64,000 bases of DNA from an uncultured Candidatus Bathyarchaeia archaeon (GCA_964618695.1 CAZUDX010000004.1:86257-150256); one strand, 5' to 3'. Shown: positions 7,929 to 58,249, counted from the first letter of the stretch. Notes: generated by a model from the letters alone, not told the origin. Numbers and translations are program-made.

Positions 7929-8242
7929 TAAATCAGCTCTTCCTAAATCGGATAATCATAACTATGGAAACTTAAATAATCTTCGTAGAGATGCAATTGA
8001 AACTGAATTTGTGTCTGGAACTTGTCAGTTATATGGGCTGATGTTAATCAAAAGTGAAGATGTAAAAATGATAAGGTTTTACTGCAGTTACTGTGAAAGA
8101 GCGAGTGTTTTGTTTGATTTTTTTGTTGATCTTCTTTTTTAGCCTTTGAAGCGAAACGTTTTTCATATATTGATTTTGGGCGGATGTTTTTGGTTTGCTG
8201 TGTTTTAATGGGCAGAGTTCTCTGCAGTTTGTGCAGGTGTAA

Positions 8243-12700: not shown

Positions 12701-13173
12701 TGCTCTTCACTGGAGGTCCACGTGCTAACCTAGGAACATTCTACTTCGACGAATGGTACATGGCAATGTATGCAGAAAATGAGTACGTTGTCAGTAACTC
12801 ATTTGGACAAAAAGACAAAATACTGGCGCTATCCTGCTGGGACAAGAACACTTACGCTAGCTACACTGACCCAATCTACGGAAGAAGCGGATTCGGAACA
12901 GTGTCCGTATACAAGGACCTCAACGGTACAATAGGCTTCTCAATATGGGGCATTGACGGACAGGACACCTACTTCCTAACCGATTGGTTCTGGGAGTATG
13001 GAATCCACTGGCTACAAGGCATAAACGACGGAGTCACCGACATAATCTTTGAAATCTGGTACCCAAGTTTCGATCCAATACACCCAATACTCTTCTATTG
13101 GGAATTACTAGGCACAATCAGCGAGAAACCACAACACGACTGCCCAATAACTGCAATACAACTTGGTCCTTAA
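9754..13173 (+). CDS. Large secreted surface protein, S-layer (glyco)protein candidate
   Basis: 1139 aa. Basic n-region plus hydrophobic signal (KKMNRKKLMIILATTTILAMLIFPMMVSQFAIA/AVYD). No further TM and no enzymatic motifs. Many N-x-S/T sequons, C-ending codon preference, and a T-tract follows. Confidence 0.5.
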   Translation: MSKKMNRKKLMIILATTTILAMLIFPMMVSQFAIAAVYDPNNMVVPGVLSSDTYTLYPYQLSDLTIGFSKYGELINGDAKVGLKYQGIDAFANPGVLEKDWSQGWFIDIHYVDLANTYKRAWAFALYTDLSGSQGIGGPWLEGCVNGPMGTPYGGRKTNVWATTDPIEVLYDGPRRFVALCNTTIYDNADKTVDDALVSVAITIIFNKVKKHVTLYKDVKRLDRGKFGRTFQVEFSNRGEWDIGTSSAPPAYGHFFDNLPTVYSGAYHEFYDYYDPLGFDVAQMYDTAYTTVGFAAFWPPLYGKLMDGTTHITRDTILSSLCTKERNQTWLALGSPSERIIDWSSLGWPSADPYPIGLGEFDDEPMVFKNNYLLVGDGVDYMWYGGGSDYLVFTVEPQDTDYITLVWKHMENPGTEDLWPIEPDTPYVIGEWVFDLENEDHKRMFRCVTLYGLTDLNDGMDNNDPFAGIDMIDSEIMYYLDECFNPYDLNDAVHKQTARRVEFFDGNGAEWTYILTDGVRFGYGTPTGYEVDQIETADEFPSSYWGSYWFQNWQDEYADIAQIYYSPLQNHTPDKHWSVRMVLDADATDERCSVRIVPEQKVSLATAFYNGISFYSYVDAQTGGSPYDLPQMRFYLDTDQDGLWDEILIWGPTTTTLDAWVLSTLGLTTQVARMGDSLQDFENFIDGANTDGTRIDANNTILFVDLLIGGWSGVNGSVVYVDDVKLDGVTWNFENGRLSPESWDDYCTFAERVLVLGDTPRALQVPARSWQFGSDYTMVWSGTQTDSFVGDGVTRTFALSFEGIMANTEIVYNGEGAGLLAVQEQGVDYTINYGTGVVTFTVAPPAQSLVRVFYQYYPRVVFNVEDIPPVGTDNVKILYSTVEYENYKPMGKYEWITVGKNAATVDSLGAAYMTEAFDSKKDIEVVAAALDIRDPIYGTNVPYVMAGATTGTRTDYYFDYPQDNRSGLHDDWCTTIPVASSNMLFTGGPRANLGTFYFDEWYMAMYAENEYVVSNSFGQKDKILALSCWDKNTYASYTDPIYGRSGFGTVSVYKDLNGTIGFSIWGIDGQDTYFLTDWFWEYGIHWLQGINDGVTDIIFEIWYPSFDPIHPILFYWELLGTISEKPQHDCPITAIQLGP

Positions 13174-13175
13174 AA

Positions 13176-13220
13176 GCCGACTAACAAGTCGCTAACCCCC
13201 CTTTCCTTTTTTTTATTTTA
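13176..13220 (+). terminator. Short hairpin plus C-run and oligo-T tract after the S-layer-like gene
   Basis: cgact-aaca-agtcg stem-loop, then cccccc and tttcctttttttttatttt. Archaeal termination typically uses oligo-T. Confidence 0.45.
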
Positions 13221-13424
13221 ATAATAGAGTCTATATTCTAAACAAGTTACATCACATAACCAAGCTTTAGTGTACAGCATGCACCAGCCCACTCTGACCA
13301 TTCAAAATACAAAAATCAAAACCAAACAGCACTGCAAATGTAAGCTTGGTAAAAGTTATCAGAAAGGAACGAACACATCCTTTCTAAGCCTAAGCTCTCC
13401 ACAAACAAAAAGGTAGTTCACCCA

Positions 13425-14579
13425 ATGACTAACATACTAGTCCCCTCAGCATCCCACCTACTCACAGACCACCTCCTATCCAGCGAAGGAATCACATGCT
13501 ACAACCTCTTCCAAAAACTACAAAAACACAACTACCACTTCGAAGCAATCTCAGACCGAATCCACATAAAAAAACCCCTAACCAACACCACATTTCACCA
13601 AACAAACACCACCGAAACAACACCAACCACCAACCCCATCAACAAATACTACAACCACATAGAATTCCTGATCAACAGCTACCGAAAATCCCTACAAATC
13701 CTACAGAAACAAAAAATCGACATAATACACCACATGCTACCCGCAATACACAACCAAACCTTCAACCTCCTACCAATCCTCAAAAAACCAAAACAACCAT
13801 TCATCTTCGGTCCAATATCCGCCCACATATACCCAAGACCCATAGACGAAAAAATGCTATCAAAACTAACAACCAACCTCCACAAAAAAACAATAAAAAA
13901 ATGCGACAGACTAATAACAATCACAAACCAAGTGAAAACACTCTACCAAAAAAACTTCGACCCAGAAAAAATATGGACAATACCCCTAGGTGTAGACACA
14001 GAACAATTCAAACCCCCAAAAAAACAAACACCCAAAAAAAATATTGAAATACTATTCGCAGGCTACCTCTACAAACTAAAAGGCGTAGAATACCTAATAA
14101 AAGCCCTACACACAATAACAAAAAAACGCCAAGACATAAAACTTAGAATCGTTGGAGAAGGCTCCGACAAACCACGCCTCATAAAACTAACTGAAACCCT
14201 AAAAATACAAGACAAAGTAATCTTCGAAGGCTTAGTCCCACACACGAAAATGCCAAAATACTACCAACAATGCGACATCTTTTGTTTCCCAACCCTCGGA
14301 GAACCTTTCGGAAAAGCCATAATAGAAGCCATGGCATGCGCAAAACCAGTCATCGCATCCAACATCGGCGGACCAGCCGAAATAATTCAACACCAAAAAA
14401 CAGGACTACTAGTCCCACCAGCCCAACCCAAAATCCTCGCCACAAAAATCCTAGAACTACTAAGCAACGAAACAGAACTAAAAAAAATGGGAGCAAACGC
14501 AAGAAAAACTGCCATAGAAAAATATTCATGGGAAAAAATAAGCGAAAAGTACCATAGCCTCTACCAAACTCTCAACTAA
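13425..14579 (+). CDS. Glycosyltransferase family 4
   Basis: 384 aa. Motifs: GVDTEQF, ILFAGYLYKLKGVEYLIKAL, EPFGKAIIEAMACAKPVIASNIGGPAEIIQHQKTGLLVPP. The coding strand is almost G-free. Confidence 0.8.
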   Translation: MTNILVPSASHLLTDHLLSSEGITCYNLFQKLQKHNYHFEAISDRIHIKKPLTNTTFHQTNTTETTPTTNPINKYYNHIEFLINSYRKSLQILQKQKIDIIHHMLPAIHNQTFNLLPILKKPKQPFIFGPISAHIYPRPIDEKMLSKLTTNLHKKTIKKCDRLITITNQVKTLYQKNFDPEKIWTIPLGVDTEQFKPPKKQTPKKNIEILFAGYLYKLKGVEYLIKALHTITKKRQDIKLRIVGEGSDKPRLIKLTETLKIQDKVIFEGLVPHTKMPKYYQQCDIFCFPTLGEPFGKAIIEAMACAKPVIASNIGGPAEIIQHQKTGLLVPPAQPKILATKILELLSNETELKKMGANARKTAIEKYSWEKISEKYHSLYQTLN

Positions 14580-14588
14580 ACCCTTTCT

Positions 14589-16073
14589 TTACCCTTTCAC
14601 AACCCCAATCGGAACCAACCGAACAACACGAGTCGCTATCCCAACCTTATCGCTCACATCCACCACCATATCCACATTCTTATACGCTGGATCAGCCTCC
14701 TCAGCTAAAACAACTGAACTAGCAGCTCTAACAACAATCCCCCTACCTTCCAAACCCTTCTTCACGTCTCCACCCCAAAACCTCCTCTTCGCAGCTGTCC
14801 TACTCAACACCCGACCAGCCCCATGAGCCGTAGAACCAAAAGAAACCTCCATAGCCTTAACCGTCCCCACCAACAACCAAGAACTCGTACCCATGCTCCC
14901 AGGAATAATAACCGGCTGCCCAACAGACCGATAATCAGCTGGAACATCCCGATGCCCAGGCGGAAAACAACGCGTCGCCCCTTTCCTATGAGTCCAAACT
15001 TTGGTCCGTTTTCCATCCACCACATGCTCTTCCTTCTTAGCAATGTTATGTGCAACATCGTAGACCAAATCCAACCCAAAATCTTCAGATGGCCTCTTGA
15101 AAACTTCCTCGAAACTCTGGCGAACCCAATGAGTAATAACTTGACGATTAACAAAAGCGTAGTTGACAGCACAAGCCATAGCCTGATAATAATCTTGAGC
15201 CTCATCACTTGTAGCGGGTGCACATGCAAGCTCTCGATCAGGCAACGAAATATTATATTTATGAACAGCCCGCTCCATGACACGCAGATAATCCGAGCAA
15301 GTCTGATGCCCGAACCCGCGTGAACCACAATGAATTAAAACAGTAACCTGTCCTTCATGAGTTACGCCGAAAGTTTTAGCCACTTGCCGATCGAAAATCT
15401 TGTCAACCTTCCCTATTTCCAAAAAATGGTTTCCTGAACCAAGAGTACCACTTTGAGGAAGACCCCGTTCCTTGGCTCTAGATGAAACCTTATCAGGGTT
15501 GGCGCCCTCCATCTGCCCCCCTTCCTCACAATGCTTTGCATCTTCAGGACGCCCTAACCCCTTCTTCACCGCCCATGGTATACCCTCAACAATTAATTGC
15601 TCAAGCTCATGTATATTCAAACGGAAATCTTTGCGGCGGCTACCCAGTCCGCTGGGAACATTCCTAAATATGGTTGTGGTTAAGGTTGCAAGGTAAGGTC
15701 GAATATCACTCTCCGAAAGGTTAGTGGTTAAAAGACGGACACCACAGTTGATGTCGTAGCCCACTCCCCCTGGACTAATTACACCATCTTCATAGTCCGT
15801 GGCTGCAACCCCGCCTATAGGAAAACCGTATCCTTCATGACCGTCAGGCAATGTAACCGCATACTTGTAAATTCCGGGTAAATGCGCAACATTAGCACAT
15901 TGGTCGAGGGTTCGATCAGTTCTTATCTTTTCTATGAGCCGCTCGTCGGCAAAGACCATGCCAGGAACGCGCATACCGGACTTGTAACTTGTGGGTATGC
16001 GCCAGCTATAATCATCAATCTTCTCGAGGGGAACAGGTGGTACCCGCCCTCGGAATTTTCTTTGCCTACTCAT
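14589..16073 (-). CDS. rtcB: RNA-splicing ligase RtcB
   Basis: 494 aa with RtcB hallmarks: GYDINCGVR, GSGNHFLE, HCGSRGFGHQ, PGSMGTSSWLLVG, STAHGAGR, AYKNVDMVVDV. Contiguous, no intein. Confidence 0.95.
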   Translation of the reverse strand: MSRQRKFRGRVPPVPLEKIDDYSWRIPTSYKSGMRVPGMVFADERLIEKIRTDRTLDQCANVAHLPGIYKYAVTLPDGHEGYGFPIGGVAATDYEDGVISPGGVGYDINCGVRLLTTNLSESDIRPYLATLTTTIFRNVPSGLGSRRKDFRLNIHELEQLIVEGIPWAVKKGLGRPEDAKHCEEGGQMEGANPDKVSSRAKERGLPQSGTLGSGNHFLEIGKVDKIFDRQVAKTFGVTHEGQVTVLIHCGSRGFGHQTCSDYLRVMERAVHKYNISLPDRELACAPATSDEAQDYYQAMACAVNYAFVNRQVITHWVRQSFEEVFKRPSEDFGLDLVYDVAHNIAKKEEHVVDGKRTKVWTHRKGATRCFPPGHRDVPADYRSVGQPVIIPGSMGTSSWLLVGTVKAMEVSFGSTAHGAGRVLSRTAAKRRFWGGDVKKGLEGRGIVVRAASSVVLAEEADPAYKNVDMVVDVSDKVGIATRVVRLVPIGVVKG

Positions 16074-31399: not shown

Positions 31400-31476
31400 T
31401 GGTGGGCCGGACCGGATTTGAACCGGCGACCTTCTGCACGTCAAGCAGATGTCCTAACCAACTAGACGACCGGCCC
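31400..31476 (-). tRNA. tRNA-Val (anticodon GAC), CCA encoded
   Basis: Manual cloverleaf of GGGCCGG-TC-GTCT-AGTTGGTTA-GGAC-A-TCTGC-TTGACGT-GCAGA-AGGTC-GCCGG-TTCAAAT-CCGGT-CCGGCCC-A-CCA. All stems pair. Confidence 0.9.
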
Positions 31477-31574: not shown

Positions 31575-31652
31575 GGGCGGGTAGATCAGCCTGGAACGAT
31601 CGCAGCGTTGGCATCGCTGAAGCCGCGGGTTCAAATCCCGCCCCGTCCACCA
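31575..31652 (+). tRNA. tRNA-Ala (anticodon GGC), CCA encoded
   Basis: Manual cloverleaf of GGGCGGG-TA-GATC-AGCCTGGAAC-GATC-G-CAGCG-TTGGCAT-CGCTG-AAGCC-GCGGG-TTCAAAT-CCCGC-CCCGTCC-A-CCA. The G3:U70 alanine identity pair is present. Confidence 0.9.
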
Positions 31653-38320: not shown

Positions 38321-39466
38321 TTATGTGATCCAGCCAAAAAGCAGCCTGTATAGTCTGTGTTCTAGGATTGTTAGGGTTTTGGCTCTTCCGAATACGCGGA
38401 AATAATTTTTTCCCATTGCTTCGATCATGTCTCCAATATCATATCTGGGGAACAGACAAGACGAGATTATGAGCCGTCCCCATTCGCCTCTCTTGAGTTC
38501 GTGAAGCATCTTCACACCTTTGCCTGTCTCAACCTCAAAATAATATGTGTCATAGTTTGGGGAAATGTAAGGCAGATCATCAAGTTGTTGCGCAAACGCT
38601 CCTTCAGTGGCGCTGTACATCTCCACTATTGGAGCCTCACCAAAATATTTCCTGAGAACTGGTCCGTATTTGAAATGGATCTTTCTGACGCTGGTGCAGA
38701 CGAGGATTTTGAAGTTCCACAGGTCTTTAGGTTTCTTTCCGTGCTTCCGTTTAACGTATCTGGCGAAGGATGTGATTACTGGAGTTACGCCAATGGTGGC
38801 TACTACAGGCTGGTCTAGGGCTCGTTGGTAGACCAGTTCGAATCTTTTCTCCCAATCTGATTTGGTGATGCCGGGACCCAACGCGTCTATTTCTTCCTGT
38901 CTGGGCAGCAGGCTGACCTTATTCAGAATGGGGTTAAGTTTTGCGTAGGTTCCCGAACTGTAACCGTAGGTAATCTCTTGTCCCCCAACTTGTTTGGTAG
39001 TTACTGCTGACGGAAAGTTTAGGTTCAATATTTTTCCTGTCAGAACTTCCATGGACTTTTTCCTATACGCATAGTTGGTTATGGCTCGTGCTCCGCAGAG
39101 GAAAATTTGTTCGATATGTGTCTTTGTAACTGGCAAAACTTTTGCAGTGCCTGTGGAGCCTCGGGTCATGACCCAACATAAGGGGGGTTCAGACAGGATG
39201 GCGGAGTGGTTGCCTGCTTTGACTTGTTCAAAGTATGGTTGAAGACCAGCATAATTTATCTTTGGAATGTTAGTTCGAAATGAATAGGCATCTTCTGCCT
39301 CGGTAACTGAGTGTTCCTTCCCGTAAAGTGTTCTTGCGTATCCTTGAAGAAGGTTCTTCAGCACTTGCTGTTGTGCCTCGGCGGGATTCTGTAAAGCTTC
39401 ATACCAAGGATTAACAATCTGCTTCAGAATGTCTACTCCAATCATTGCTGCGTCATCGACCACCAC
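38321..39466 (-). CDS. GH3-family adenylate-forming enzyme (short form)
   Basis: 381 aa. The N-terminal layout (Q..VLKNLL......T.YG...FR.NIP...Y..L.PY......G......P......TRGSTGTAKVLPVT) matches GH3 auxin-responsive-promoter family proteins. Confidence 0.55.
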   Translation of the reverse strand: MVVDDAAMIGVDILKQIVNPWYEALQNPAEAQQQVLKNLLQGYARTLYGKEHSVTEAEDAYSFRTNIPKINYAGLQPYFEQVKAGNHSAILSEPPLCWVMTRGSTGTAKVLPVTKTHIEQIFLCGARAITNYAYRKKSMEVLTGKILNLNFPSAVTTKQVGGQEITYGYSSGTYAKLNPILNKVSLLPRQEEIDALGPGITKSDWEKRFELVYQRALDQPVVATIGVTPVITSFARYVKRKHGKKPKDLWNFKILVCTSVRKIHFKYGPVLRKYFGEAPIVEMYSATEGAFAQQLDDLPYISPNYDTYYFEVETGKGVKMLHELKRGEWGRLIISSCLFPRYDIGDMIEAMGKNYFRVFGRAKTLTILEHRLYRLLFGWIT

Positions 39467-39511
39467 GAGATAACGGTGCAGTTTCTTTTAAGGGGGATGT
39501 TAATTTGGCTT

Positions 39512-39916
39512 CTAGGTTCTTGGATTTCTTCCCCTAGCCGTAGCTGCTCCCACTATTACTCCAATTATCACGATTGCTCCAATTATGACTAAGACGAAGG
39601 GGAGGATTGATCGAAAAGTAATGACGCCAGTTGTTACAAGATAGGACATGAAGCCCACTAATATCAGAATTATACCGCCGATTAACGGACCTAAAATGCC
39701 GTACTCTCGCTTCTCATATTTTTCTTGCTGCTCTCCCTTCTCCATTTTCTCTTCTTTTTCCTGTTTTTCATGTTTCTCCTGTTTCTCAGCCTTCTCACTT
39801 CTATAATGAACCGTTGGCGTTGGTCCTTGCGCTAAAGCGGCGCCGCATTGGGGACAAAAAGTCATTTCTTCTCTGGTTTTAAAGCCACATTTCTGGCAAT
39901 AGGGCAATAAATTCAC
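39512..39916 (-). CDS. Zinc-ribbon membrane protein with EK-rich repeat linker
   Basis: CQKCG...CPQCG, then EKAEKQEKHEKQEKEEKMEKGEQQEKYEK, then 2 TM. Confidence 0.5.
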   Translation of the reverse strand: MNLLPYCQKCGFKTREEMTFCPQCGAALAQGPTPTVHYRSEKAEKQEKHEKQEKEEKMEKGEQQEKYEKREYGILGPLIGGIILILVGFMSYLVTTGVITFRSILPFVLVIIGAIVIIGVIVGAATARGRNPRT

Positions 39917-40028
39917 CTTTTTGCAGTTCTAATCTCCTATTATTTGAATGATGGGTATTTAAAATATACACCTCGAAATTTCGTGGAGAAATATTATAAG
40001 CTCTTACTGCAAGAATGCAATATTTGAG

Positions 40029-40517
40029 GTGGATTATTTGAACGATAGCACGAGGGCTCCTCGCAGATATGGAGAGGGATTAATTACCGCCATTTCTGTC
40101 GGATTCGTCTTCCTTCTTGTGGGGGCCATCTTTATCATCACCCCTAACCTATTTGACGGAATTGTTGATTTCTTTAAAGACTTCACGATAGTTGATGTTC
40201 CAAACTCTAACTGGGCACTTCCTGCACCGCAAATTCCGGGCAACCATATAGTAGTTTATGAGGCTGTAATGCAGTTCAGTTTCGCTATAGGACTATTTCA
40301 ACTCGTCATCCTAGCACTGAGATTTTTTGCCCCGTCACCATGGGGAAAAAGATCAGAGACTGTTGGAAACTTGGTTTTCTGGCTGGGCACAGGTTTTCTA
40401 ATTCAGACCTTCCTTCTTGAAACTACACAATGGTTCGTATTCTGTTCCACGATAATAATACTAATCGGTGTTTCTCTGATAGCAAGAGCAATGGTTATGG
40501 CAGCTTCGCGTATCTAA
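40029..40517 (+). CDS. Integral membrane protein (4 TM)
   Basis: 162 aa, hydrophobic helices. Confidence 0.45.
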   Translation: MDYLNDSTRAPRRYGEGLITAISVGFVFLLVGAIFIITPNLFDGIVDFFKDFTIVDVPNSNWALPAPQIPGNHIVVYEAVMQFSFAIGLFQLVILALRFFAPSPWGKRSETVGNLVFWLGTGFLIQTFLLETTQWFVFCSTIIILIGVSLIARAMVMAASRI

Positions 40518-40531
40518 CTAACAGCACGCGC

Positions 40532-41878
40532 CTATTGAGTTCCCGCACATAAGTATTGATTCTTCTCGAGTTCCAGCGGGCACCCTCCGCCACAGATTTG
40601 CAGTTGCGGGCACTCTTTGCATTTCGGTTCCACATATTCTCTCTTTCTCAACTTCACTGCAAGCGGGTGATTCCAGATTTTTTGCCACTCTTCCTTTAGT
40701 ATGTTGCCAAGACTCTCAAAGTAGCTTTGGCACGGATAGACATCACCGTTGGGTCCAACACACATGTTAATCATCGCTGCTGTGCAAGATTTGACGCCTA
40801 AACCCAATTTCACAGGGTCAAAACGACAATATTGGGTTGGAGTGTACCAAAGAAATTTTAGTCCCAGCTGACTCGCTTTGTCGTGGACTTTAGGCAACAA
40901 TTCTTTCAGGGTTTCAAGGGGCAAAGCGAATTCTTTGCTTATTTCGTTTGCTTTTCCTGAGTAAATTAAACTGTTACATCCAAAGGCGGCTACGCCCAGC
41001 TCTTTCAAATAGTCTATGGTTTCCAGAAAATGTGGGGCATTGTATCTGCTGAGAGTAGTGTTTGTGGTAGCGTAAATCTGCGTTGGAATCACGTTTTTGA
41101 TTCCAGCCACAGTTTCTTTCCAACTTCCTTTTGTCGCCGTCATTCGGTCATGAATTTCTGGCTTATGCGACTCAAGGGTCACTTGGATGAAGTCCAATCC
41201 AGTTTTTTCAAGGATTTCGACGTAGTTTTTGTCCTTTAGTTTTCTGCCGTTACTGATAAGACCCGTAACTAATCCTTTGTTTTGCGCGTAAAGTAGAAGC
41301 TCCGGCAGGTCTTCCCTGAGTGTTGGTTCGCCTCCAGTGAAGGTTAATATAAAAACGCCAATTTGGTGAAGGCGGTCAATAACTTGTTTCCATTGTTCTG
41401 TGGAGAGTTCCGAGGTTTCATGGGGTCCGCCAGCGTAGCAGTGTTCACAATTGTTTTGGCATCTGAAGGTTAGCGCCAAGTCCACACGCAACGGTGCCGA
41501 AAGCTGTTGGGTGAAGGGTTCTATTTTTTCCAAGTCGAGAAAAGATATGGGACAAATTTCTTCAGTCTGCGCCAAGGTGCTGATGGTGTAGATTAGCTTC
41601 TCATAATCAGTTCTCGCTGTCTTCTTGTCCACTCGGTACATGCTCTTAATCTTTGCAACGGCTTCATCTGTCGTCATGCCCTGCATAAAATAGAAAGCAT
41701 GAACAGTAGCTGTCTCGTTTAAGTAAAGAACAGTGTTGGCGTTTATCACCAAAAGTCCTTGACCGTCGGGTTCCACACGAAGCTGAAGAGCTAAACCCTT
41801 GAAATCGCCCTTCCCCCGATATGTGTAACGTCCACGGGGAGCCTTGGATTTATGCAAAAATTTGCGAACAAAACTCAT
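40532..41878 (-). CDS. Radical SAM / SPASM-domain enzyme with N-terminal PqqD-like (RRE) domain; peptide/protein-modifying maturase candidate
   Basis: 448 aa. LTFRCQNNCEHCYAG (CxxxCxxC) and TFTGGEPTL. The C-terminal Cys-rich SPASM-type region is CTAAMINMCVGPNGDVYPCQ...CKECPQLQICGGGCP. The N-terminal ~100 aa (LLVINANTVLYLNETATVHAFYFMQGMTTDEAVAKIKSMYRVDKKTARTDYEKLIYTI) look PqqD-like. Confidence 0.8.
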   Translation of the reverse strand: MSFVRKFLHKSKAPRGRYTYRGKGDFKGLALQLRVEPDGQGLLVINANTVLYLNETATVHAFYFMQGMTTDEAVAKIKSMYRVDKKTARTDYEKLIYTISTLAQTEEICPISFLDLEKIEPFTQQLSAPLRVDLALTFRCQNNCEHCYAGGPHETSELSTEQWKQVIDRLHQIGVFILTFTGGEPTLREDLPELLLYAQNKGLVTGLISNGRKLKDKNYVEILEKTGLDFIQVTLESHKPEIHDRMTATKGSWKETVAGIKNVIPTQIYATTNTTLSRYNAPHFLETIDYLKELGVAAFGCNSLIYSGKANEISKEFALPLETLKELLPKVHDKASQLGLKFLWYTPTQYCRFDPVKLGLGVKSCTAAMINMCVGPNGDVYPCQSYFESLGNILKEEWQKIWNHPLAVKLRKREYVEPKCKECPQLQICGGGCPLELEKNQYLCAGTQ

Positions 41879-41888
41879 GATTACACCT

Positions 41889-43523
41889 TCACCTCTTTAT
41901 TCCCACTCCTCCTCCTGCACAGGCGCAAGCACACGATACACAGGCGCATGCACACGCGCAGGCAGCACAAGCACATACACAACTGGACCTGTGGTGAGCC
42001 GGTTTTCTAGAAGATTTTGAAGTTGGCATGGGAAGTATTGCGTTGGCGAACTTTTCGATATTAGTCACTATATTGTTTGAGGTGTTTTCTACAGCCGTTG
42101 CGATGTTGTTGGCGAAGTCTGCGCCAGGAATTGTTGGAGGTTTCGTCGCTTTGCTGGGTGTTTCAATATTTGGTTTGTATGTGGGTTTAGGGTGATAGTG
42201 CCTGTAGCTGTACCAGTACCAAAACCAGAAGGGACTCGGCTCAAAGGCTGTGTTGCGGAAAGCTGTTTGGGTACGTGATTTAACGTTCGGGTCGAGTAAA
42301 AGCCACAGTAATTGCTCATCATAGGCTTTCGATGTTAACTCTGGCGTGCCCGCCTGTTCCACCTGTTTCCAGGCCTTTGCCACGATTTTCCGGTAATATT
42401 CTATGGTGTCGCGCCGGAGGTAACCCAGCAACTTTTTTTCAACAGTTCGTCTGAGAAGCATGATTGTTTGAGCAAGTTTCTCTTCGTCAAGGGTTCCGTC
42501 TTCTCTTATGGCGTTGAGGAAGTCGATTTCATAGTATCGAAGAGGATTTTTTCGAGTTCCAGTCTTGTCCTGAAAAGGTTTCATAATTCTAATTTTCAGC
42601 GAAGGGGTCGTGGACTCGACCCAAACTGCCCTCTTCTTCAAAAGACTGTACACAATTTCCGTGACTATTTGAGTTGGCTTTAGCCTGAGGAGGTAAGAAG
42701 CCTCCACAGCGGTTAGACCGCGCCTAATTCCAAGGGTTTCAACCCCGATTGTAGGCTTCTTATACGGTCTCTTGCGAATATTGATGACAACTGCGACAAT
42801 AACAACAACCGAAATTCCCAAAAGCAAAAACGCAGGCCAATAATTCTGAAAGAAATCAATTAAATCAGATTTTGTCTCATAAACCTGAACGTACTCTTTA
42901 GGAAAAGAGACTCCAAAATTGTATTTCTGACCCGGCGCCAGATTTTTTCTTTCCCAGTAAACAGATAACCTTCCATTTTCGGTTAGCACGTTGTCCCAGT
43001 CCACCGATGTTTTCACCAAGTCTTCTGTGACTCCAGACGGTAAAACAATCTGCACTCGCAGGTCGTATACGCTTGCTTCATCCCACCATGTTGGAATGAA
43101 CTGCATGCCAACGTTACCCGGGTTTTCAGTGTCTTCAAATATCATGCCAGCAACGTTTGTGGTGAGGTTGAATCTGACTGTTTGTCCAGCCATTAAGGGC
43201 GTGTTGAGGTTGACGCGCACCCTGTAATCGCTTCCAGAACTCGCATCAGAGGCGTCAAGCATGTAGCCTTGTTGGTCTATGGCTGTTCCTATGGTGAAGT
43301 CGCGTTTGGGTTGACCAACATATACAAAATTTATGTTAGGACCAGAATCGAGGGTTATGCTGATGTCATAGAAGAGGTCTATAGTGCCGTCTTCAGGGTT
43401 TATCCAAATTTTCACCCACTCGTGGTCCAGATGATATGTTCTCTGGGCGTTCACCGTGCCTGTAAACATCGCCAAGATTAATGTGACCGATAATGTGGCG
43501 AGCAGAAAACGGGTCTTCACCAT
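41889..43523 (-). CDS. DUF2207-like membrane protein with C-terminal (Cys-Ala)n tail
   Basis: 544 aa. Signal peptide (..FTGTVNA/QRTY), a ~200-aa extracytoplasmic beta-rich domain, a TM (WPAFLLLGISVVVIVAVVINI) and a cytoplasmic helical domain. The terminal sequence is SSCVCACAACACACACVSCACACAGGGVGIKR. GAGGTGA lies upstream of the next gene, 10 nt away. Confidence 0.6.
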   Translation of the reverse strand: MVKTRFLLATLSVTLILAMFTGTVNAQRTYHLDHEWVKIWINPEDGTIDLFYDISITLDSGPNINFVYVGQPKRDFTIGTAIDQQGYMLDASDASSGSDYRVRVNLNTPLMAGQTVRFNLTTNVAGMIFEDTENPGNVGMQFIPTWWDEASVYDLRVQIVLPSGVTEDLVKTSVDWDNVLTENGRLSVYWERKNLAPGQKYNFGVSFPKEYVQVYETKSDLIDFFQNYWPAFLLLGISVVVIVAVVINIRKRPYKKPTIGVETLGIRRGLTAVEASYLLRLKPTQIVTEIVYSLLKKRAVWVESTTPSLKIRIMKPFQDKTGTRKNPLRYYEIDFLNAIREDGTLDEEKLAQTIMLLRRTVEKKLLGYLRRDTIEYYRKIVAKAWKQVEQAGTPELTSKAYDEQLLWLLLDPNVKSRTQTAFRNTAFEPSPFWFWYWYSYRHYHPKPTYKPNIETPSKATKPPTIPGADFANNIATAVENTSNNIVTNIEKFANAILPMPTSKSSRKPAHHRSSCVCACAACACACACVSCACACAGGGVGIKR

Positions 43524-43966
43524 TTCGGTTCCTCAACTATTTCGAATGTTTGTTTGCAGTAGGGGCATGTTGCATATGGTACGCCGTCCACGATTTTGAT
43601 CTGGTCAGAGTTTACCGAAGCCGAGCAGTTGGGACATTTGAGGGCGACGGCGCTCATTTGCCCTGAAAATTCCAACTGTTGGATAATTGTTTTCGGCTTT
43701 CTGGTTATGTAGTAGGCAATTACGATGCCGACAACAAACAGCATAGCAGCAGTAATCAGTCGGGTCGTCTTTAGTTCAACTGAAATCGCTGCCCCAGTGG
43801 ACCAAGCGAATATGATACCGAAAAAAAAGAGAACCGCAACTATAATTGTGCCTAGCGCCGTTTTGAGATTCACGGATACATTTGAAATAACTTCAAGTAA
43901 TTTAATCTTACCACACGACAAGCAGCATAACCGAGATAATGTTAAGCGAAGTTTCAGAATGGGCAT
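43517..43966 (-). CDS. Two-TM membrane protein with C-terminal zinc ribbon
   Basis: 149 aa. CPNC...CPYC. Overlaps the downstream gene start by 7 nt and the nrdJ stop by 13 nt. Confidence 0.5.
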   Translation of the reverse strand: MPILKLRLTLSRLCCLSCGKIKLLEVISNVSVNLKTALGTIIVAVLFFFGIIFAWSTGAAISVELKTTRLITAAMLFVVGIVIAYYITRKPKTIIQQLEFSGQMSAVALKCPNCSASVNSDQIKIVDGVPYATCPYCKQTFEIVEEPKW

Positions 43967-46065
43967 ACGCCTGCTGGGCAGCCACCTGCATATTCAGAGT
44001 CTGCGCTTACGTGTTTTTCAGTAGCCATCTCCTTAGTCAAAAGTGGACCCACGTATAGAACCTGTTCCTTTTTGCTTCCGTACCGATAAACAGTTACCCC
44101 TTTGCATTTCAACTTGTAAGCCATCAGATATACTCTTCTAACGTCTTCCACAGTCGCGTCGGGCGGAAGATTCACTGTCTTCGAAACAGCGTTGTCTACG
44201 TATTTCTGGAAAGCCGCCTGCATTCTCACATGCCACTCCGCATCAATATCCAAAGCTGTTACAAAAATTCTCCGTACGTCTTTAGGAATATTCTCCATAT
44301 TTTGTATGGAACCTGTCTTCGCAATCTCCAACATTAAGTCCCTGCTGTAAAAGCCTCTTTCCATTGCCAGTTTTTCGAATGTGGGCTGTATCTCCAGCAA
44401 CCTTGTGCCCTCCATAACATTTCTAACAAAAGCCACAGCAAAAATCGGCTCTATTCCCCCTGAACAACCACCAATTATGCTTATTGTTCCCGTGGGCGCA
44501 ACTGTAGTGACTGTAGAGTTGCGAATCGTCTTGTAGCCCCTCTTCTCCCAGAGGCTACCCTTAAAGTTGGGGAAAGCTCCTCTCTTCTCACCTATCTCAA
44601 CAGACTTCTTCGTAGCCTCTTCACTCACGAATTTCATGACTTTTTCTGCCATAGCTAAGGCTTCTTCAGAATCGTAGGGGATACCCAACATGATGAGCAT
44701 GTCTGCGAAGCCCATGACTCCCAACCCGATTTTTCGGTTAGCACGGGTGAGTTCCCCGATTTCCTGCAAAGGATACTTGTTCACGTCAATCACGTTGTCT
44801 AAGAAGTGGACAGCGGTTCTGGTTACTCTTCTCAGTTTCTCCCAGTCCAGTTCTCTATCCTTAACCATTTTAGCCAAGTTGATGGAACCCAGATTACATG
44901 ATTCGAAAGGTAGCAGTGGCTGTTCTCCACATGGGTTAGTGCTCCGAATCTCTCCCACTTGCGGAGTTGGATTATGACGATTTATTTCATCAATAAAGAC
45001 AAGACCTGGGTCTCCTGTTCTCCAAGCATTGGCAACTATCAAATCAAAAATGTGACGAGCACGCAACTTAGTTTCAGCCTTTCCGTTTCGAGGATTAACA
45101 AGGGCAACTTCTCCATCCTTTTCCACAGCCTCCATGAACTCGTCCGTAACTGCCACGGAAATGTTGAAGTTTGTTAGAATTCCTTCTTTGGACTTTGCTT
45201 CAATGAACTTCAAAATGTCGGGGTGAGTCACGTCTAATATTGCCATGTTGGCTCCCCGTCTTCGTCCTCCCTGTTTAATCACGTTGGTTGCAGCGTCATA
45301 GATTGTCATGAACGAGACTGGTCCAGAGGCTATTCCTTTAGTGGAGCCTACTATGTCCCCTGCAGGTCTCAACTTCGAGAACGAAAAACCGGTTCCCCCG
45401 CCCGACTGATGGATCATCGCCATATTCTTCAAAGTGGTGAATATACCATCTATCGAATCCTCTACAGGCAGGACGAAACAGGCGGAAAGCTGACCAAGTC
45501 TGGTGCCTGCGTTCATTAGGGTCGGAGAGTTAGGTAGAAACTCTCGGTTCGCCATAACTTGATAAAAAGTTTCCTCAATCTGTTTTACGTCAGCTTTTTT
45601 GTCGTAGAGAACGTCTGCTTTAGCCACTGCTTTGGCAACTCTGCGAAACAACTGGCTTGGAGTCTCAACAACCTTGCCCTCATAATCTTTCATGAGATAC
45701 CTGTTTTTCAGCACTTTTATGGCGTTGACTCCCAGTTTTAAATCGTCAACAACACCGAAGAACTTTTTGAACTCTCTAATTTCTGTGCGCTTCTGACGAT
45801 ACAAAATATAGGATTTAGCCACATCAGCATATCCCTCCCTGATGAGAACCTCCTCAACAATATCCTGAACGTTCTCAACACTGGGAACTTTATTTACGAA
45901 TCGTTCGTTGAGGAGCTTTACCACATCTTCGGAAAGCCTCTTCGCAATGTCAACATCTCCCTTCTCAACAGCCTTTAATGCCTTGAGAATAGCGTTAGTT
46001 ATCTTGGTTTTATCAAAACTAACTATGCGTCCATCTCGTTTTGTGATCTTAGAAACTCTAACCAA
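43954..46065 (-). CDS. nrdJ: Ribonucleoside-triphosphate/diphosphate reductase, class II (adenosylcobalamin-dependent), with ATP-cone
   Basis: 703 aa. N-terminal ATP-cone (KRDGRIVSFDKTKITNAILKA), thiyl-radical loop TNPCGEQPLLPFESCNLGS, C-terminal Cys pair GGCPAGVCPF. No intein. Confidence 0.9.
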   Translation of the reverse strand: MVRVSKITKRDGRIVSFDKTKITNAILKALKAVEKGDVDIAKRLSEDVVKLLNERFVNKVPSVENVQDIVEEVLIREGYADVAKSYILYRQKRTEIREFKKFFGVVDDLKLGVNAIKVLKNRYLMKDYEGKVVETPSQLFRRVAKAVAKADVLYDKKADVKQIEETFYQVMANREFLPNSPTLMNAGTRLGQLSACFVLPVEDSIDGIFTTLKNMAMIHQSGGGTGFSFSKLRPAGDIVGSTKGIASGPVSFMTIYDAATNVIKQGGRRRGANMAILDVTHPDILKFIEAKSKEGILTNFNISVAVTDEFMEAVEKDGEVALVNPRNGKAETKLRARHIFDLIVANAWRTGDPGLVFIDEINRHNPTPQVGEIRSTNPCGEQPLLPFESCNLGSINLAKMVKDRELDWEKLRRVTRTAVHFLDNVIDVNKYPLQEIGELTRANRKIGLGVMGFADMLIMLGIPYDSEEALAMAEKVMKFVSEEATKKSVEIGEKRGAFPNFKGSLWEKRGYKTIRNSTVTTVAPTGTISIIGGCSGGIEPIFAVAFVRNVMEGTRLLEIQPTFEKLAMERGFYSRDLMLEIAKTGSIQNMENIPKDVRRIFVTALDIDAEWHVRMQAAFQKYVDNAVSKTVNLPPDATVEDVRRVYLMAYKLKCKGVTVYRYGSKKEQVLYVGPLLTKEMATEKHVSADSEYAGGCPAGVCPF

Positions 46066-46266
46066 CTTTCGCCCCCAAGATACTAATGTTCACAACTACT
46101 TTAATCTGTAGCCCTCAAATTAAGGATGATTTTGTGGCTATACTAATAACTATCTAAAGCAAGAAACGGGTTTTCTCTACGACCAGAAAGCCTTGTTGAT
46201 TAACTAAAAAAACAAAAAAGGGAAGGGGGAGATTTTCAGAAGGCTTAGTTCGCCATTGAGCCGTGT

Positions 46267-47655
46267 TTAGTATGGTAGAGTTTCCAGCCAGGGATAAAGC
46301 ATCTTTATCTTCGCTACTGCTTTGTCCACTTTTTCCTCTGGGTATTCGTATGGTAGTAGTTTGCCGTGGTTGTAGTCGTCGTAGGCTTGCATGTCAAAGT
46401 AGCCGTGACCGCACAGCAGGAAGAGAAGTGTCTTTTCCTCTCCAGTCTCCTTGCATCTTAAAGCCTCATCAATGACAGCCTTAATGGCATGGGTTGGCTC
46501 GGGAGCAGGTACTATAACCTCGCTTTTTATGAAGGTTTTTGCGGCGTCGAAGACCTCCAGTTGGTTATAGGCTTTGGTTTCTAACATGTTCGCATCCTTT
46601 AAGATGCTCAAAGTGGGCGCTATACCGTGGTAGCGTAGACCTCCAGCATGGATTGGCGGTGGTATGAAATTATGGCCTAAGGTATGCATTTTTACTAGGG
46701 GTGTAATTCTCGCCGTGTCGCCGTGATCGTACATGTATTTTCCTTTGGTGATCGAGGGACAAGCTGTCGCTTCAGTAGCTACAAACTTGGTATCTTTTGG
46801 CGCTTTTCCTGAAACTTTGTCGTGGTAGAAAGGCCAGAAGAGACCTGAGAAGCTGCTGCCGCCACCTATGCATCCGTAGATTACATCTGGATAATCGTCT
46901 ACTAATGCAAGCTGTTTCTGGGCTTCCTGTCCTACCACTGTTTGATGCAAAAGAACATGATTGAATACACTGCCTATACCATAATTCGCTTCTGGACTAA
47001 CCAACGCATCTTCTACAGCTTCGCTGATGGCAATTCCTAGGCTTCCAGTACTGTTAGGGTCTTCAGCCAAAACTTTTCTGCCAGCCTCTGTCTTGTTGCT
47101 TGGACTGGCGTAAACCTCGGCGTTATAAGTTTCCATCAGAACCCTTCGGTAAGGCTTCTGGTCGTAGCTGATCCGCACCATGTACACTGTGCAATCGAGA
47201 CCAAAAGTCATGCAGCCAAAGGCGAAAGCTGAGCCCCACTGGCCGGCTCCGGTTTCGGTAGCCATGCGTTCTTTGCCTGCTTTCATGTTGTAGTAAGCTT
47301 GTGCAACGGCAGTGTTGGGTTTGTGGCTTCCTGAGGGGCTAACTCCTTCATATTTGTAGTAGATTTTGGCCGGGGTCTTAAGCGCCTTTTCCAGTCGAGT
47401 GGCTCTGAAAAGTGGAGTGGGTCTCCACAGACTGTAGATATCTCGCACTTCGTCAGGGATGTCTATCCATCTTTCCTTACTCAGCTCTTGTCCGATAATC
47501 TCTTTGGGAAAGATTTTGGGAACGATTCCAGCTCCAGGTGCATGCGTTTCCGTTTCTATAAAGGGCGGCATCGGTTTAGGCAGATCCGGCAGTATGCAGT
47601 ACCATTTTTTGGGTATTTCTTCTTCGTCTAGCACTATCTTCTTTTTGGTTACCAT
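46267..47655 (-). CDS. trpB: TrpB2-type tryptophan synthase beta-like PLP enzyme
   Basis: 462 aa. [23 protein letters not shown] (PLP lysine), GGGSSFSG. Long N-terminal extension typical of TrpB2. No trpA nearby. Confidence 0.85.
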
Positions 47656-55416: not shown

Positions 55417-56027
55417 CGGCAGCTCAAGTGGCAGTCGTGAATTATGGCGTGGGAAACCTGAGAAGCATCAGGAGAGGACTCGAAAGATCAGGAGCTCAAG
55501 TCCAGATTACCCACAGCCCAAGTGACTTGCGTGAATCTGACGCCATAGTTCTTCCTGGTGTGGGCGCCTTTGCTCCCGCAGTCAAAAACCTAGCGCCAAT
55601 AACTGATGTTGTAGCGGAGGCGAGGGATGATGGAAAGCCTATTCTTGGAGTCTGTTTGGGTCTTCAGCTTCTCTTCACGCGGAGTAGCGAAGGCGGATCA
55701 ATCAGGGGACTGGACTTCATTTCAGGAGAGATCGTTAAATTGCCTGAGAAAGTAAAGACTCCTCAGATGGGATGGAACACCATTGAAATAGAGCAGTCTC
55801 ATCCACTACTTGAGGGGGTAAAAGACGGCTCTTACGTTTATTTCGTCCACTCCTATTACCCTCAGCCCTCAGACCCGGAAGTGACCGTGGCAACTACTGA
55901 ATATGGAGTCAGATTTCCTTCGATGGTGGCAAAAAAGAATCTGTTTGCGACGCAGTTTCACCCTGAAAAAAGCAGTAAAACCGGATTAACCATACTGAAG
56001 AACTTCGTGAGTATAGTGAAGAGGTAG
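55413..56027 (+). CDS. hisH: Imidazole glycerol phosphate synthase, glutamine amidotransferase subunit
   Basis: NYGVGNLRSI, GVCLGLQLL (nucleophile Cys), QFHPEKS. Confidence 0.9.
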   Translation: MTAAQVAVVNYGVGNLRSIRRGLERSGAQVQITHSPSDLRESDAIVLPGVGAFAPAVKNLAPITDVVAEARDDGKPILGVCLGLQLLFTRSSEGGSIRGLDFISGEIVKLPEKVKTPQMGWNTIEIEQSHPLLEGVKDGSYVYFVHSYYPQPSDPEVTVATTEYGVRFPSMVAKKNLFATQFHPEKSSKTGLTILKNFVSIVKR

Positions 56028-56032
56028 CCGAC

Positions 56033-56752
56033 ATGATAGTTATCCCTGCTGTTGACATTTTGGACGGGAGATGCGTTCGACTGGTTAGAGGTGACCCTGA
56101 AAAAAGCAAGGTCTACTACGAGGATCCTCTTGAGGCTGCTCAGTTGTTGGAGGAGCAAGGGGCACAGCTCATTCATCTAATTGACTTGGATGCTGCATTG
56201 GGTTCTGGACAGAACATGAAACCAATAAGAAGAATTTTAGAGAATATTGGTGTGAAGGTGCAGATTGGGGGCGGAATCAGAACGTTGGAGAAGACTGATG
56301 CTCTGCTGAAACTGGGTGCCTATCGGGTGATTTTCGGAACAGCGGCAGTTCAGAATCCGTCGTTGGTTGAAGAAGCTGTGCGCCGTTTCGGATCAAAGAG
56401 CGTTGCCGTGGCTGTGGATGAGAAAGAGGAAAAAGTGGTAGTTCGCGGCTGGAAGAACAAGTCTGAAATAGACTACCTAGACCTCGCTCGTTCTTTCGAA
56501 ACGATGGGAGTTGGCACCTTAATTTTCACGCCAATTAGTGTGGATGGAACGTTGAAGGGACCACAAATAGAAAAGACTGTGGAACTTGTGGAAGCGGTGA
56601 AGGTTCCGGTTATAGCGTCTGGTGGCGTAGCCGCCTTAAAGGATCTGGTCGAGTTGGCTGGGACTGGAGTGGAGGGTGTGGTGGTTGGCACTGCTCTTTA
56701 CGAGCGGAAGTTTACTCTAGAAGAAGCTTTGGAGGTTGTGAAAGGATGTTAG
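56033..56752 (+). CDS. hisA: ProFAR isomerase
   Basis: [27 protein letters not shown]. Confidence 0.9.
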
Positions 56753-57555
56753 CTAAGCGAATAGTGCCTTGTCTGGATGTTAAGGATGGGAAGGTTGTGA
56801 AGGGTGTGCAATTCGTGAATTTGCGAGTTGAAGGCGACCCTGCGGAGCTTGCTGCCGCCTATGAAATTCAGGGTGCGGACGAGGTGGTTTTTTTGGATAT
56901 TACTGCTTCCTACGAGAAGAGGGATACTATGTTGGATATTGTGAAAAAAACTTCGGACATGATTTCCATTCCCTTCACTGTGGGTGGTGGCATCAGGAAC
57001 ATTGGTGATATTCAGAATGCTCTTTCTTCTGGGGCAGACAAGGTTTCGTTGAACACTGCGGCGGTGAGAGAGCCTAAAATTGTGAAGGAGTCGGCTGAGG
57101 TTTTTGGTAGTCAATGTATTGTTGTTGCTATTGATGCTAAGAGAGTTTACGTGGACAGCAAAGTTTCTGGTAAGACGGTGGTAGAGACTTCAAAGGGTAA
57201 GTGTTGGTGGGAAGTTTATGTTGAGGGCGGAAGAGTGCCGACGGGAATAGATGCTTTAGCTTGGGCTAAGACTGTGAAAGATTTGGGTGCAGGGGAGTTG
57301 TTGCCAACCAGCATGGACTGTGACGGAACTCAAGATGGCTACGATATAGCTTTGACCCGTTCGATGAGTGAATTAACGAATTTGCCGATAATTGCCAGTG
57401 GAGGCGCTGGGAACCTTGAACACATCTATGAGGTTTTGACGGCTGGAGACGCTGACGCCGCCCTAGCAGCTTCTATCTTTCATCGGTCCCAGTATTCTGT
57501 GGGAGAAGTTAAGAGGTACCTTGCCGAGAAAGGAGTGCCAATGCGGCTAGTGTAA
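56746..57555 (+). CDS. hisF: Imidazole glycerol phosphate synthase, cyclase subunit
   Basis: [53 protein letters not shown]. Confidence 0.92.
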
Positions 57556-57571
57556 TGTGGGGTGAAGAAGT

Positions 57572-58249
57572 TTGGTCTTGAAACTGAGTGAAGCTGAGAT
57601 TGACGAGTTCGTTAAAAAGGTGAATTTTGAGAAGGGTAAGGGTCTTGTTCCGGTTGTTGTTCAGGACGCGTCAAACGATAGGGTGTTGATGCAGGCTTAC
57701 ATGAACGAAGAGGCTTTGCGGTTGACGTTGGCTAGTGGTAAGATGCATTTCTGGAGTAGAAGCCGTGGAAAAATGTGGATGAAAGGCGAAGAGTCTGAAC
57801 ACACTTCACTAGTACAGAATGCTATCTTAGACTGTGACGATGACGCGATTCTCTTTAAGGTTCAGCAGATAGGTCCGGTGTGTCACACGGGCGAAGAAAC
57901 GTGCTTCTACAAGCCCATAAAAGCAGAAGAAACATTGAAGGTTGATGCGAAAGTAATTGAGCGGATTTTTGAGGTGATAAACGAGCGGATACAGAATCCC
58001 ACTGAAAAGTCTTATGTTTCTCGTTTGACTGCTGAAGGAGAGGACGCTGTTCTTCAGAAGATAGGAGAAGAAGCAGTGGAACTTATCCTCGCAATAAAAG
58101 AGGACAAACCAAAAGAAATCACACACGAAGCCGCCGATGTGTTCTTCCACATCATGGTGCTCTTCGCCAAAAAAGGCATTACGCTCACCAGCATCTTCGA
58201 AGAACTAGAACAACGACACAAAAATAAAACACAAAAACCACAAAAATGA
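57572..58249 (+). CDS. hisI: Bifunctional phosphoribosyl-AMP cyclohydrolase / phosphoribosyl-ATP pyrophosphatase
   Basis: HisI part: LVPVVVQD...FWSRSRGKMWMKGEESEH...DCDDDAILFKV...VCHTG. HisE part: SYVSRL...KIGEEAVE...EAADVFFHIMVL. Confidence 0.9.
   Translation: MVLKLSEAEIDEFVKKVNFEKGKGLVPVVVQDASNDRVLMQAYMNEEALRLTLASGKMHFWSRSRGKMWMKGEESEHTSLVQNAILDCDDDAILFKVQQIGPVCHTGEETCFYKPIKAEETLKVDAKVIERIFEVINERIQNPTEKSYVSRLTAEGEDAVLQKIGEEAVELILAIKEDKPKEITHEAADVFFHIMVLFAKKGITLTSIFEELEQRHKNKTQKPQK

Follow-up and report, generated by a model that had tools for sequence, protein, structure and literature searches.

Radical S-adenosylmethionine (SAM)/SPASM enzymes that depend on a recognition element (RRE) for ribosomally made, post-translationally modified peptides (RiPPs) are known almost only for small secreted peptides. 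What, then, is the substrate of such an enzyme when its operon holds no small peptide gene? This question is raised by a locus in a 64,000-nucleotide (nt) stretch of DNA (the window, numbered from its first letter) from an uncultured Candidatus Bathyarchaeia archaeon (GCA_964618695.1 CAZUDX010000004.1:86257-150256). Bathyarchaeia are among the most abundant archaea of sediments. Three genes are packed together on the minus strand of the window: gene A (43517-43966) encodes a zinc-ribbon membrane protein of 149 amino acids (aa), gene B (41889-43523) a 544-aa membrane protein that ends in an alternating Cys-Ala tail and gene C (40532-41878) a 448-aa enzyme with RRE, radical SAM and SPASM domains. 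A reading of the locus from its sequence alone (hereafter the sequence-only reading) had proposed that C modifies the tail of B in place. By comparing the locus with its relatives, we find that B and C form a constant pair, whereas A is frequent but replaceable. The pairing of B with C in distant archaea and in bacteria points to a protein modification or a metal site, undescribed so far, on the inner side of the membrane. The predicted gene neighbourhood is strongly borne out, and the interpretation as a whole is partly supported.

A membrane protein family with a conserved Cys-Ala tail

B is a type-I membrane protein. A signal peptide and a β-sandwich ectodomain are followed by a transmembrane (TM) helix and a cytoplasmic domain, from which a disordered linker leads to the Cys-Ala tail. 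Its AlphaFold2 (AF2) model, based on a 145-sequence alignment, has a predicted local distance difference test (pLDDT) score of 77, with the ectodomain (residues 29-208) above 90. The model places the TM helix at residues 220-250, a winged-helix/helical domain at residues 265-445, two further helices at residues 467-484 and 489-496 and a disordered segment at residues 498-544. Hydropathy analysis assigns the single, central TM helix to residues 231-249, or approximately 228-250 (42774-42842, minus strand; Kyte-Doolittle value 2.96). The helix is followed by RKRPYKKP, and seven Lys or Arg residues occur in the 20 residues after it versus two before it. Because of this excess of positive charge, together with the signal peptide and the single TM helix, the C-terminal ~290 residues of B, including the tail, are predicted to be cytoplasmic, where the sequence-only reading had placed the tail.

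The tail (residues 515-539, CVCAC-AA-CACACAC-VS-CACACA-GGG; 41907-41981, minus strand) contains every Cys of the protein. There are exactly ten, all within residues 515-535 of the CVCACAACACACACVSCACACA-GGG sequence, which agrees with the Cys-dense C-terminus noted earlier. This is the best-conserved region of B, with a mean majority frequency of 0.85 versus 0.35-0.58 elsewhere. All 120 of the closest homologues (71-100% identical) retain the pattern C[VI]CACAxCACxCACVSCACACA[GS]GG. Full-length relatives that are 29-37% identical end in a 7-Cys C-terminus, CACACACAGCACACAGGGR, or in ...CACACACAGGGGCT; the 7-Cys ending is found in relatives from Chloroflexota and Zixibacteria that are ~30% identical. 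An identical 19-aa tail is found in 106 of the 118 bacterial homologues of one distant member. With ~19 residues identical between proteins that are 37-55% identical overall, the tail ranks among the most rigidly conserved short motifs. A Cys-Ala tail is present in all 100 C-terminally complete representatives of the family, and 97 of these have a strict CxCxC..CxCxC arrangement. The other three are two fragments with a disrupted tail (one plainly frameshifted) and a protein with a shorter, 5-Cys tail.

The amino acids of the tail are invariant in 22 Bathyarchaeia genome loci, although the codons beneath them vary freely (TGT 128 and TGC 92 for Cys; GCT/GCC/GCG/GCA 60/46/35/26 for Ala). Thus, the tail is under strong selection at the protein level and is not an accident of a DNA repeat.

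Two other roles for the tail were considered. Its Kyte-Doolittle hydropathy is 2.25 over 19 residues (41916-41981, residues 515-536), a value at which automatic predictors may call a second TM helix and so place the C-terminus on the side opposite to the one inferred here. Such a helix, or a tail anchor, is nevertheless unlikely. The tail is disordered in the AF2 model (pLDDT below 30), and the bacterial tail has only 15 residues, with poly-Gly on its flanks and one Arg at its end. A sorting signal resembling PEP-CTERM or PGF-CTERM was rejected on topology. Two family members (P0266 and P0297) carry the Cys-Ala motif internally, ahead of an extension of ~90 aa (GGGFCFRLRKGMK...) that stems either from a natural fusion or from reading through into the following gene.

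Immediately before the disordered region lies a segment (residues 464-497, PTIPGADFANNIATAVENTSNNIVTNIEKFANAI; 42033-42134, minus strand) that is conserved between archaea and bacteria (PTLPGAxFA...F). We consider this pre-tail segment a candidate leader-like region for recognition by the RRE of C.

An exhaustive HMMER search of 1.84 billion cluster representatives recovered 595 relatives of B (50%-identity clusters). The family of ~600 clusters thus defined occurs in both Archaea and Bacteria and has no Pfam or NCBIfam model. The window B has no Pfam or NCBIfam match whether scanned whole or split, and its cytoplasmic domain gives no meaningful match in profile searches against PDB sequences and Pfam. 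Two variations of the layout are seen (P0271, P0272, P0282, P0288 and P0303): some proteins are 55-64% identical to B in the ectodomain only and have wholly different C-terminal parts, and other family members have duplicated ectodomains (766-774 aa). The ectodomain is thus modular, leaving the cytoplasmic domain and tail as the constant unit.

Gene C encodes an RRE-bearing radical SAM/SPASM enzyme

The sequence-only reading had assigned a PqqD-like recognition element, a radical SAM core and a Cys-rich SPASM region to C, and each of the three is found. Radical SAM enzymes use a CX3CX2C motif in a partial TIM barrel to bind the [4Fe-4S] cluster that cleaves SAM. The corresponding core of C (residues 136-290; 41009-41473, minus strand) matches PF04055 with 83.4 bits (E = 2.6e-23, cutoff 29.5) and carries the motif as CQNNCEHC (41438-41461), in which C140, C144 and C147 are invariant among orthologues. 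SPASM domains bind two auxiliary [4Fe-4S] clusters through a seven-Cys motif, CX9-15GX4C ... CX2CX5CX3C ... C. The SPASM domain of C (residues 351-433; 40580-40828, minus strand; PF13186, 42.4 bits, E = 8.4e-11, cutoff 21.5) has eight invariant Cys residues (C351, C365, C373, C383 and C420-x2-C423-x5-C429-x3-C433), of which C365...G378-x4-C383 and the CX2CX5CX3C stretch fit this motif, and the signature is complete.

RREs are winged-helix-like domains of ~90 aa, composed of a three-stranded sheet and three helices, that serve as peptide-binding elements. Residues 16-104 of C (41567-41833, minus strand) match PqqD (PF05402) with 17.2 bits, below the cutoff of 23.4. This cutoff is exceeded by two relatives, the orthologue from locus L034 (30.4 bits) and a Cys-less paralogue from locus L037 (24.7 bits), and two further orthologues score 22.2 and 21.7 bits. 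In the AF2 model the N-terminus of C folds into four strands (residues 16-53) followed by three helices (residues 55-104). The closest solved relatives by sequence are SkfB (2.7e-21) and SuiB (1.3e-13), followed by PqqE, and the closest folds in full-length Foldseek comparisons are again SkfB (8.7e-11) and SuiB (1.1e-10), both of which bear an RRE. On the scores of the relatives, the predicted fold and these full-length matches, the N-terminal domain of C is a PqqD-like RRE.

Some Chloroflexi-like loci encode a second paralogue of C that is 33-42% identical (L120:13384-14532, L037:9446-10576 and L036:12615-13662, the last truncated by the end of the locus). The L120 and L037 paralogues keep an RRE-like N-terminus and have lost CxxxCxxC and all SPASM Cys residues, with two Cys in total. 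A gene for a UbiE-like methyltransferase follows within ~1 kb, directly in L037 and after an intervening 246-aa gene in L120. The Cys-less paralogue resembles a catalytically dead pseudo-radical SAM protein and might still bind the C-terminus of B.

B and C remain adjacent in distant lineages

A genome scan recovered 29 loci, all from Bathyarchaeia, 26 of which lie on contigs that reach far enough past B to be informative. C is directly downstream of B in all 26 (distinct Bathyarchaeia species), and A is directly upstream of B, with the other flanks differing among loci. From a metagenome scan seeded with the C profile, 80 loci were kept. With enough sequence to judge, B lies upstream of C in 67 of 67 and A lies upstream in 47 of 47. 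All of these loci are close Bathyarchaeial relatives, 69-89% identical, and so provide no wider phylogenetic test of whether C occurs without B. The module is present in every Bathyarchaeial locus recovered.

Outside Bathyarchaeia, C adjoins B in 10 of 11 contexts, from Zixibacteria, Anaerolineales, other bacteria, Thermoprotei and Methanooceanicella (Methanocellales). The C orthologues in bacteria and other archaea are 43-53% identical over their full length, and the bacterial B proteins are ~30% identical to the window B apart from the tail. The order A-B-C is found in L030, L032 (Zixibacteria), L034 (Anaerolineales) and L036, and also in L037, where C carries frameshifts. The order is B-C-A in two Thermoprotei loci (L119 and L122), A-B-B-C in L120 and B-C on the short contig L118. 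In L121, from the cultured methanogen Methanooceanicella nereidis (assembly GCA_021023085.1, contig PGCK01000005.1; B homologue WP_230741659.1), the B-C pair is preceded by a non-homologous protein with two TM helices. In L035, the sole exception, there are two tailed B paralogues, and neither A nor C lies within 6 kb of them. Thus, B and C stay adjacent despite differing flanks and a permuted gene order, while A moves. These counts uphold the expectation that tailed B genes have a radical SAM gene directly downstream.

No orthologue of C beside a small peptide gene instead of B was found in the loci examined, so the sequence-only reading survives the gene-neighbourhood condition that it had set for its own refutation. 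Nor is there a small precursor open reading frame (ORF) in or beside the operon, whose genes overlap or are 10 nt apart and leave no intergenic room, and none is conserved across loci. The end of B is the sole Cys-rich sequence there. The absence of a precursor ORF nearby had been noted in the sequence-only reading and is confirmed. ORFs of 53-54 aa that follow a methyltransferase gene in two bacterial loci were considered as precursors and rejected, being hydrophobic, containing at most one Cys and not being seen in other loci. In addition, no protease or exporter is conserved near the module in the loci compared.

The A protein has two TM helices by hydropathy (residues 36-54 and 70-88) and a C-terminal zinc ribbon that is predicted to be cytoplasmic (C111-x2-C114 ... 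C134-x2-C137; 43556-43636, minus strand). The ribbon is kept in archaeal and bacterial homologues, and its profile matches are weak (HypA, 1.2e-3; YnfU, 4.6e-4). Bacterial homologues are 30-40% identical (E = 1e-16 to 1e-21) and end in ...CPYCGxT[FY]xxxEEPKW. The C-terminal EEPKW is conserved from Bathyarchaeia to Chloroflexota. One Thermoprotei lineage instead has EEPIW and so lacks the Lys. In Methanooceanicella, where the non-homologous protein stands in place of A, the B-C pair and the tail are retained.

Other genes recur near the module in some lineages. A methyltransferase of the UbiE/Methyltransf_11 type recurs in several bacterial loci (L030:9061-9846, L032:9138-9800, L037:10775-11530 and L034:2428-3345), where it may add a tailoring step specific to some lineages. 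The genes that flank the module in the window (40029-47655) do not include it. In two related bacterial loci (L036:10441-12580 and L120:10327-13356), genes for phospholipid synthesis (CDP-alcohol phosphatidyltransferase, lysophospholipid acyltransferases and PAP2) come right after the module, which may be mere local synteny.

A proposed model for tail maturation on the membrane protein

An RRE-bearing radical SAM/SPASM enzyme encoded next to a disordered, conserved, Cys-rich sequence upstream, the lack of any other precursor and the predicted cytoplasmic location of that sequence together lead us to propose B as a substrate and C as its maturase. Specifically, C would bind the cytoplasmic C-terminus of B and modify the Cys-Ala tail, most probably by forming thioether cross-links, a proposal that we regard as evenly poised. 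Being disordered and on the cytoplasmic side by prediction, the tail should be accessible to C. The PqqD-like RRE would dock on B residues ~464-497 and thereby deliver the tail into the radical SAM/SPASM active site, where 5′-deoxyadenosyl-radical chemistry would alter it while it is still attached to B. The likeliest product would be several Cys-S-to-carbon thioethers of the sactionine or ranthionine type, formed to the Ala, Val or Ser residues that lie between the Cys residues. The two-residue spacers between the CxCxC blocks would make a cross-linked hairpin or ladder possible. Thioethers are favoured because SkfB, the closest solved relative, forms them and because Cys, Ala, Val, Ser and Gly are the sole residues available in the core.

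With neither a protease nor an exporter conserved near the module, the product probably remains on B. It would then form a structural or redox/metal-binding knob that the protein carries on the inner side of the membrane, and no secreted peptide would be made. The membrane-anchored zinc-ribbon protein A might serve as an accessory partner, possibly in docking or assembly, that is dispensable or replaceable in some lineages. A broader statement of this model, which we hold more tentatively and rate somewhat short of an even chance, is that RRE-guided radical SAM/SPASM chemistry turns the tail into a covalently cross-linked, possibly metal- or cluster-bearing structure retained on B at the cytoplasmic face. 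This would be a form of protein maturation that has so far gone unrecognised and that is common to Archaea (Bathyarchaeia, Thermoprotei and Methanocellales) and Bacteria (Chloroflexota and Zixibacteria).

If the model is correct, chemistry of the RiPP type would extend to the maturation of a membrane protein in situ and would build a protein-borne cofactor or signalling element rather than a secreted natural product. The B-C pair of M. nereidis comes from a cultured organism, and short tail constructs could be co-expressed with the enzyme.

Several observations weigh against tail maturation by C. The L035 locus has tailed B genes with no radical SAM gene within 6 kb. Because most loci are Bathyarchaeial, the large counts lack phylogenetic independence, and the independent evidence amounts to ~6-8 lineages. 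The AF2 model of C is of moderate quality (pLDDT 66). Furthermore, the best NCBIfam matches of C are to the cofactor-modifying enzymes NirJ2 and AhbD and not to sactisynthases, and since all of these scores are far below cutoff, sequence similarity does not fix the chemistry. Finally, CxC repeats such as those in metallothioneins and CopY-type tails are classic metal-binding motifs that could work unmodified. The analysis shows the gene anatomy, the domain architecture, the conservation of the tail and the linkage of B with C, which fit either tail modification or plain metal binding; that the tail is the substrate, that the RRE docks on the pre-tail segment and which chemistry is used are inferred.

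Alternative roles for the tail and the enzyme

The rival explanations rank by weight as an unmodified metal or Fe-S tail, a non-peptide substrate for C and A as the substrate. The first of these, the main competitor, we consider unlikely but deserving of serious weight. In this case, the tail would bind Zn, Cu(I) or an Fe-S cluster on a membrane sensor or scaffold without being modified, and C would be linked to B for some different reason, perhaps exchanging clusters or electrons through the tail or acting on some other B-bound substrate. The arrangement of the tail is well suited to ligation, having CxCxC blocks with small spacers, Cys confined to the tail, a Gly-rich linker before and GGG after, and the literature describes a CxCxxxxCxC motif in CopY. 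The tailed B genes of L035, with no radical SAM gene nearby, would also be explained. However, the presence of a fused PqqD-like RRE in C speaks for the binding of a peptide, B and C are adjacent almost universally in two domains of life, as enzyme-substrate pairs typically are, and the invariant Ala, Val and Ser positions exceed the needs of simple ligation.

It is improbable, although less so than the proposals that follow, that C acts on a lipid or cofactor at the membrane, with A and B as docking partners and the tail having an unrelated role. The top NCBIfam similarities of C are to the tetrapyrrole-modifying enzymes NirJ2, AhbD and AhbC, the PDB sequence matches include the lipid synthase GDGT-MAS, and in two Chloroflexi-like loci the module is followed by genes for phospholipid synthesis. 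Each of these points has a counterweight: the best NCBIfam score is 151 bits against a cutoff of 500, the GDGT-MAS match is limited to the radical SAM core (residues 129-236) and the lipid genes are found only in two related loci. Moreover, RRE domains are elements for binding peptides.

We regard as very improbable a third proposal, that A is the substrate and C modifies its ...EEPKW end, for example by a Lys-Trp cross-link such as those made by SuiB or WgkB. This ending is kept from Bathyarchaeia to Chloroflexota, SuiB is the second-best structural match of C, and WgkB and KxxxW maturases are among its NCBIfam matches. Opposing this, Methanooceanicella keeps B-C and the tail with a non-homologous protein in place of A, one Thermoprotei lineage has EEPIW and therefore no Lys, and A shifts when the gene order changes while B and C stay adjacent. 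An adjacent Lys-Trp pair would also be an unlikely geometry for a cross-link.

An artefactual tail without function, arising from translation of a TGYGCN microsatellite or from an ORF end called wrongly, has a negligible probability: Tandem Repeats Finder reports a weak 12-nt repeat (41916-41964, score 49, 70% matches), yet codon variation beneath residues that are invariant in 22 species rules out a DNA-repeat origin, the motif is kept across domains of life at ~30% overall protein identity and tails with frameshifts are confined to database entries that are fragments.

Comparison with known systems

The proposed B-C pair most resembles the sactipeptide and ranthipeptide systems (SkfB, AlbA, CteB/SCIFF and PapB). 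The maturases have the same N-terminal PqqD-like RRE, radical SAM and SPASM domains with two auxiliary-cluster motifs, and a Cys-rich target is encoded directly upstream of the enzyme gene. In those systems, however, the target is a free peptide of 40-60 aa, whereas the candidate here is the last ~25 residues of a 544-aa membrane protein and the locus has no short, separate precursor of the SCIFF type. There is also no conserved protease or exporter, and the alternating Cys-Ala core is unlike any described core. Among curated NCBIfam maturase models, C falls below the cutoff in every case (SkfB, 93 of 300 bits; AlbA, 85 of 850; StsB, 80 of 625). The NirJ2 and AhbD models likewise exclude C, with 151 and 128 bits against cutoffs of 500, and C additionally has an RRE.

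The sequence-only reading had contrasted the locus with systems that act on short free peptides. This holds for the sactipeptide and ranthipeptide systems but not for radical SAM/SPASM enzymes in general. The sulfatase maturase anSME modifies Cys in full-length folded sulfatases, and QhpD, another SPASM enzyme, forms several Cys-to-Asp/Glu thioethers in QhpC, which stays in the mature enzyme. The anSME/AtsB enzymes resemble C in acting on Cys of a full-length folded protein, with a Foldseek match (4k38), but they have no RRE and make one formylglycine per protein rather than acting on a multi-Cys array. Their target motif, C/S-x-P/A-x-R, is absent from the tail CVCACAACACACACVSCACACAGGG. QhpC differs from B in being a small, soluble, exported subunit of ~100 aa. 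The Asp and Glu acceptors of QhpD are lacking in the tail, and no dehydrogenase genes lie near the module.

Metallothionein and CopY tails share the dense CxC pattern and the small spacers. In the B family, by contrast, the non-Cys positions are invariant too, the tail ends a membrane protein and it is genetically tied to an RRE-bearing radical SAM enzyme.

B had also been described as DUF2207-like, a label with weak support. DUF2207 proteins (PF09972/PF20990) have a similar layout of signal peptide, β-rich extracytoplasmic domain, TM helix and low-complexity Gly-rich tail, and NCBI labels some members of the B family DUF2207. One of 10 distant members reaches 23.9 bits against the cutoff of 24.4 in the N-terminal domain. 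The other nine have no DUF2207 match, the window B has no DUF2207 Pfam match at E < 10, and DUF2207_C matches neither the window B nor any of the 10 distant members. The relation is remote at best and confined to the ectodomain. To our knowledge, canonical DUF2207 tails are Gly/Ser-rich without a Cys-Ala motif, and no radical SAM partner has been reported for them. A literature search found no paper with both DUF2207 and radical SAM.

The ectodomain fold resembles those of ribophorin I/OST1 (Foldseek, 8pn9_E, 5.8e-11) and of the N-domains of M1 aminopeptidases. The alignment with human RPN1 spans 438 columns, and identities are 8-13%. The B homologue of Methanooceanicella is even named OST subunit 1 in RefSeq. 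OST1 nevertheless has no counterpart of the tail or of the radical SAM partner, and a link to oligosaccharyltransferase is unsupported. We found no Pfam or NCBIfam model that covers A, B or C, and no description of the A-B-C system in a literature search.

Gene junctions and neighbouring features

The three ORFs are packed as the sequence-only reading described, with a 7-nt overlap between A and B (ATGGTGA, 43517-43523) and a 10-nt gap between B and C. A GAGGTGA sequence straddles the B stop codon ~11 nt 5′ of the C start codon (ATG at 41878). An overlap with the upstream gene nrdJ had likewise been reported. The gene (43954-46065; NrdJ_Z match, 766 bits) has its stop codon at 43954-43956, and the longest A ORF, which starts with ATG at 43966, does run into it. 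Homologues of A, however, start ~28-32 codons further in, near a GTG at 43871-43873, which is probably close to the true start, so that the overlap may stem only from the choice of the longest ORF. Membership of nrdJ in the unit was rejected because its position beside the module is lineage-specific, being seen in only 1 of the 29 loci from genomes and 2 of the 80 from metagenomes. In the genome scan, it is upstream only in the closest relative. The closest relatives are from Candidatus Bathyarchaeum (86-92% identical).

Downstream of C, a separate small cluster occupies 38321-40517. Its genes encode an adenylating enzyme of the GH3 family (38321-39466), a membrane protein that has a zinc ribbon, an EKQEK-rich repeat and a weak DUF2207_C match (39512-39916; E = 4.8e-4) and another membrane protein, of 162 aa, that matches no family (40029-40517). 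The cluster recurs as a group in several Bathyarchaeia loci, where it sits ~2-8 kb from A-B-C and is therefore not part of the module.

Elsewhere in the window, two divergent tRNA genes, at 31403-31476 (minus strand) and 31575-31649 (plus strand), are the sole Rfam matches in the 64 kb. Strong GC-skew blocks occur at 8001-10000 (+0.32), 12001-16000 (-0.24 to -0.29) and 56001-58000 (+0.33).

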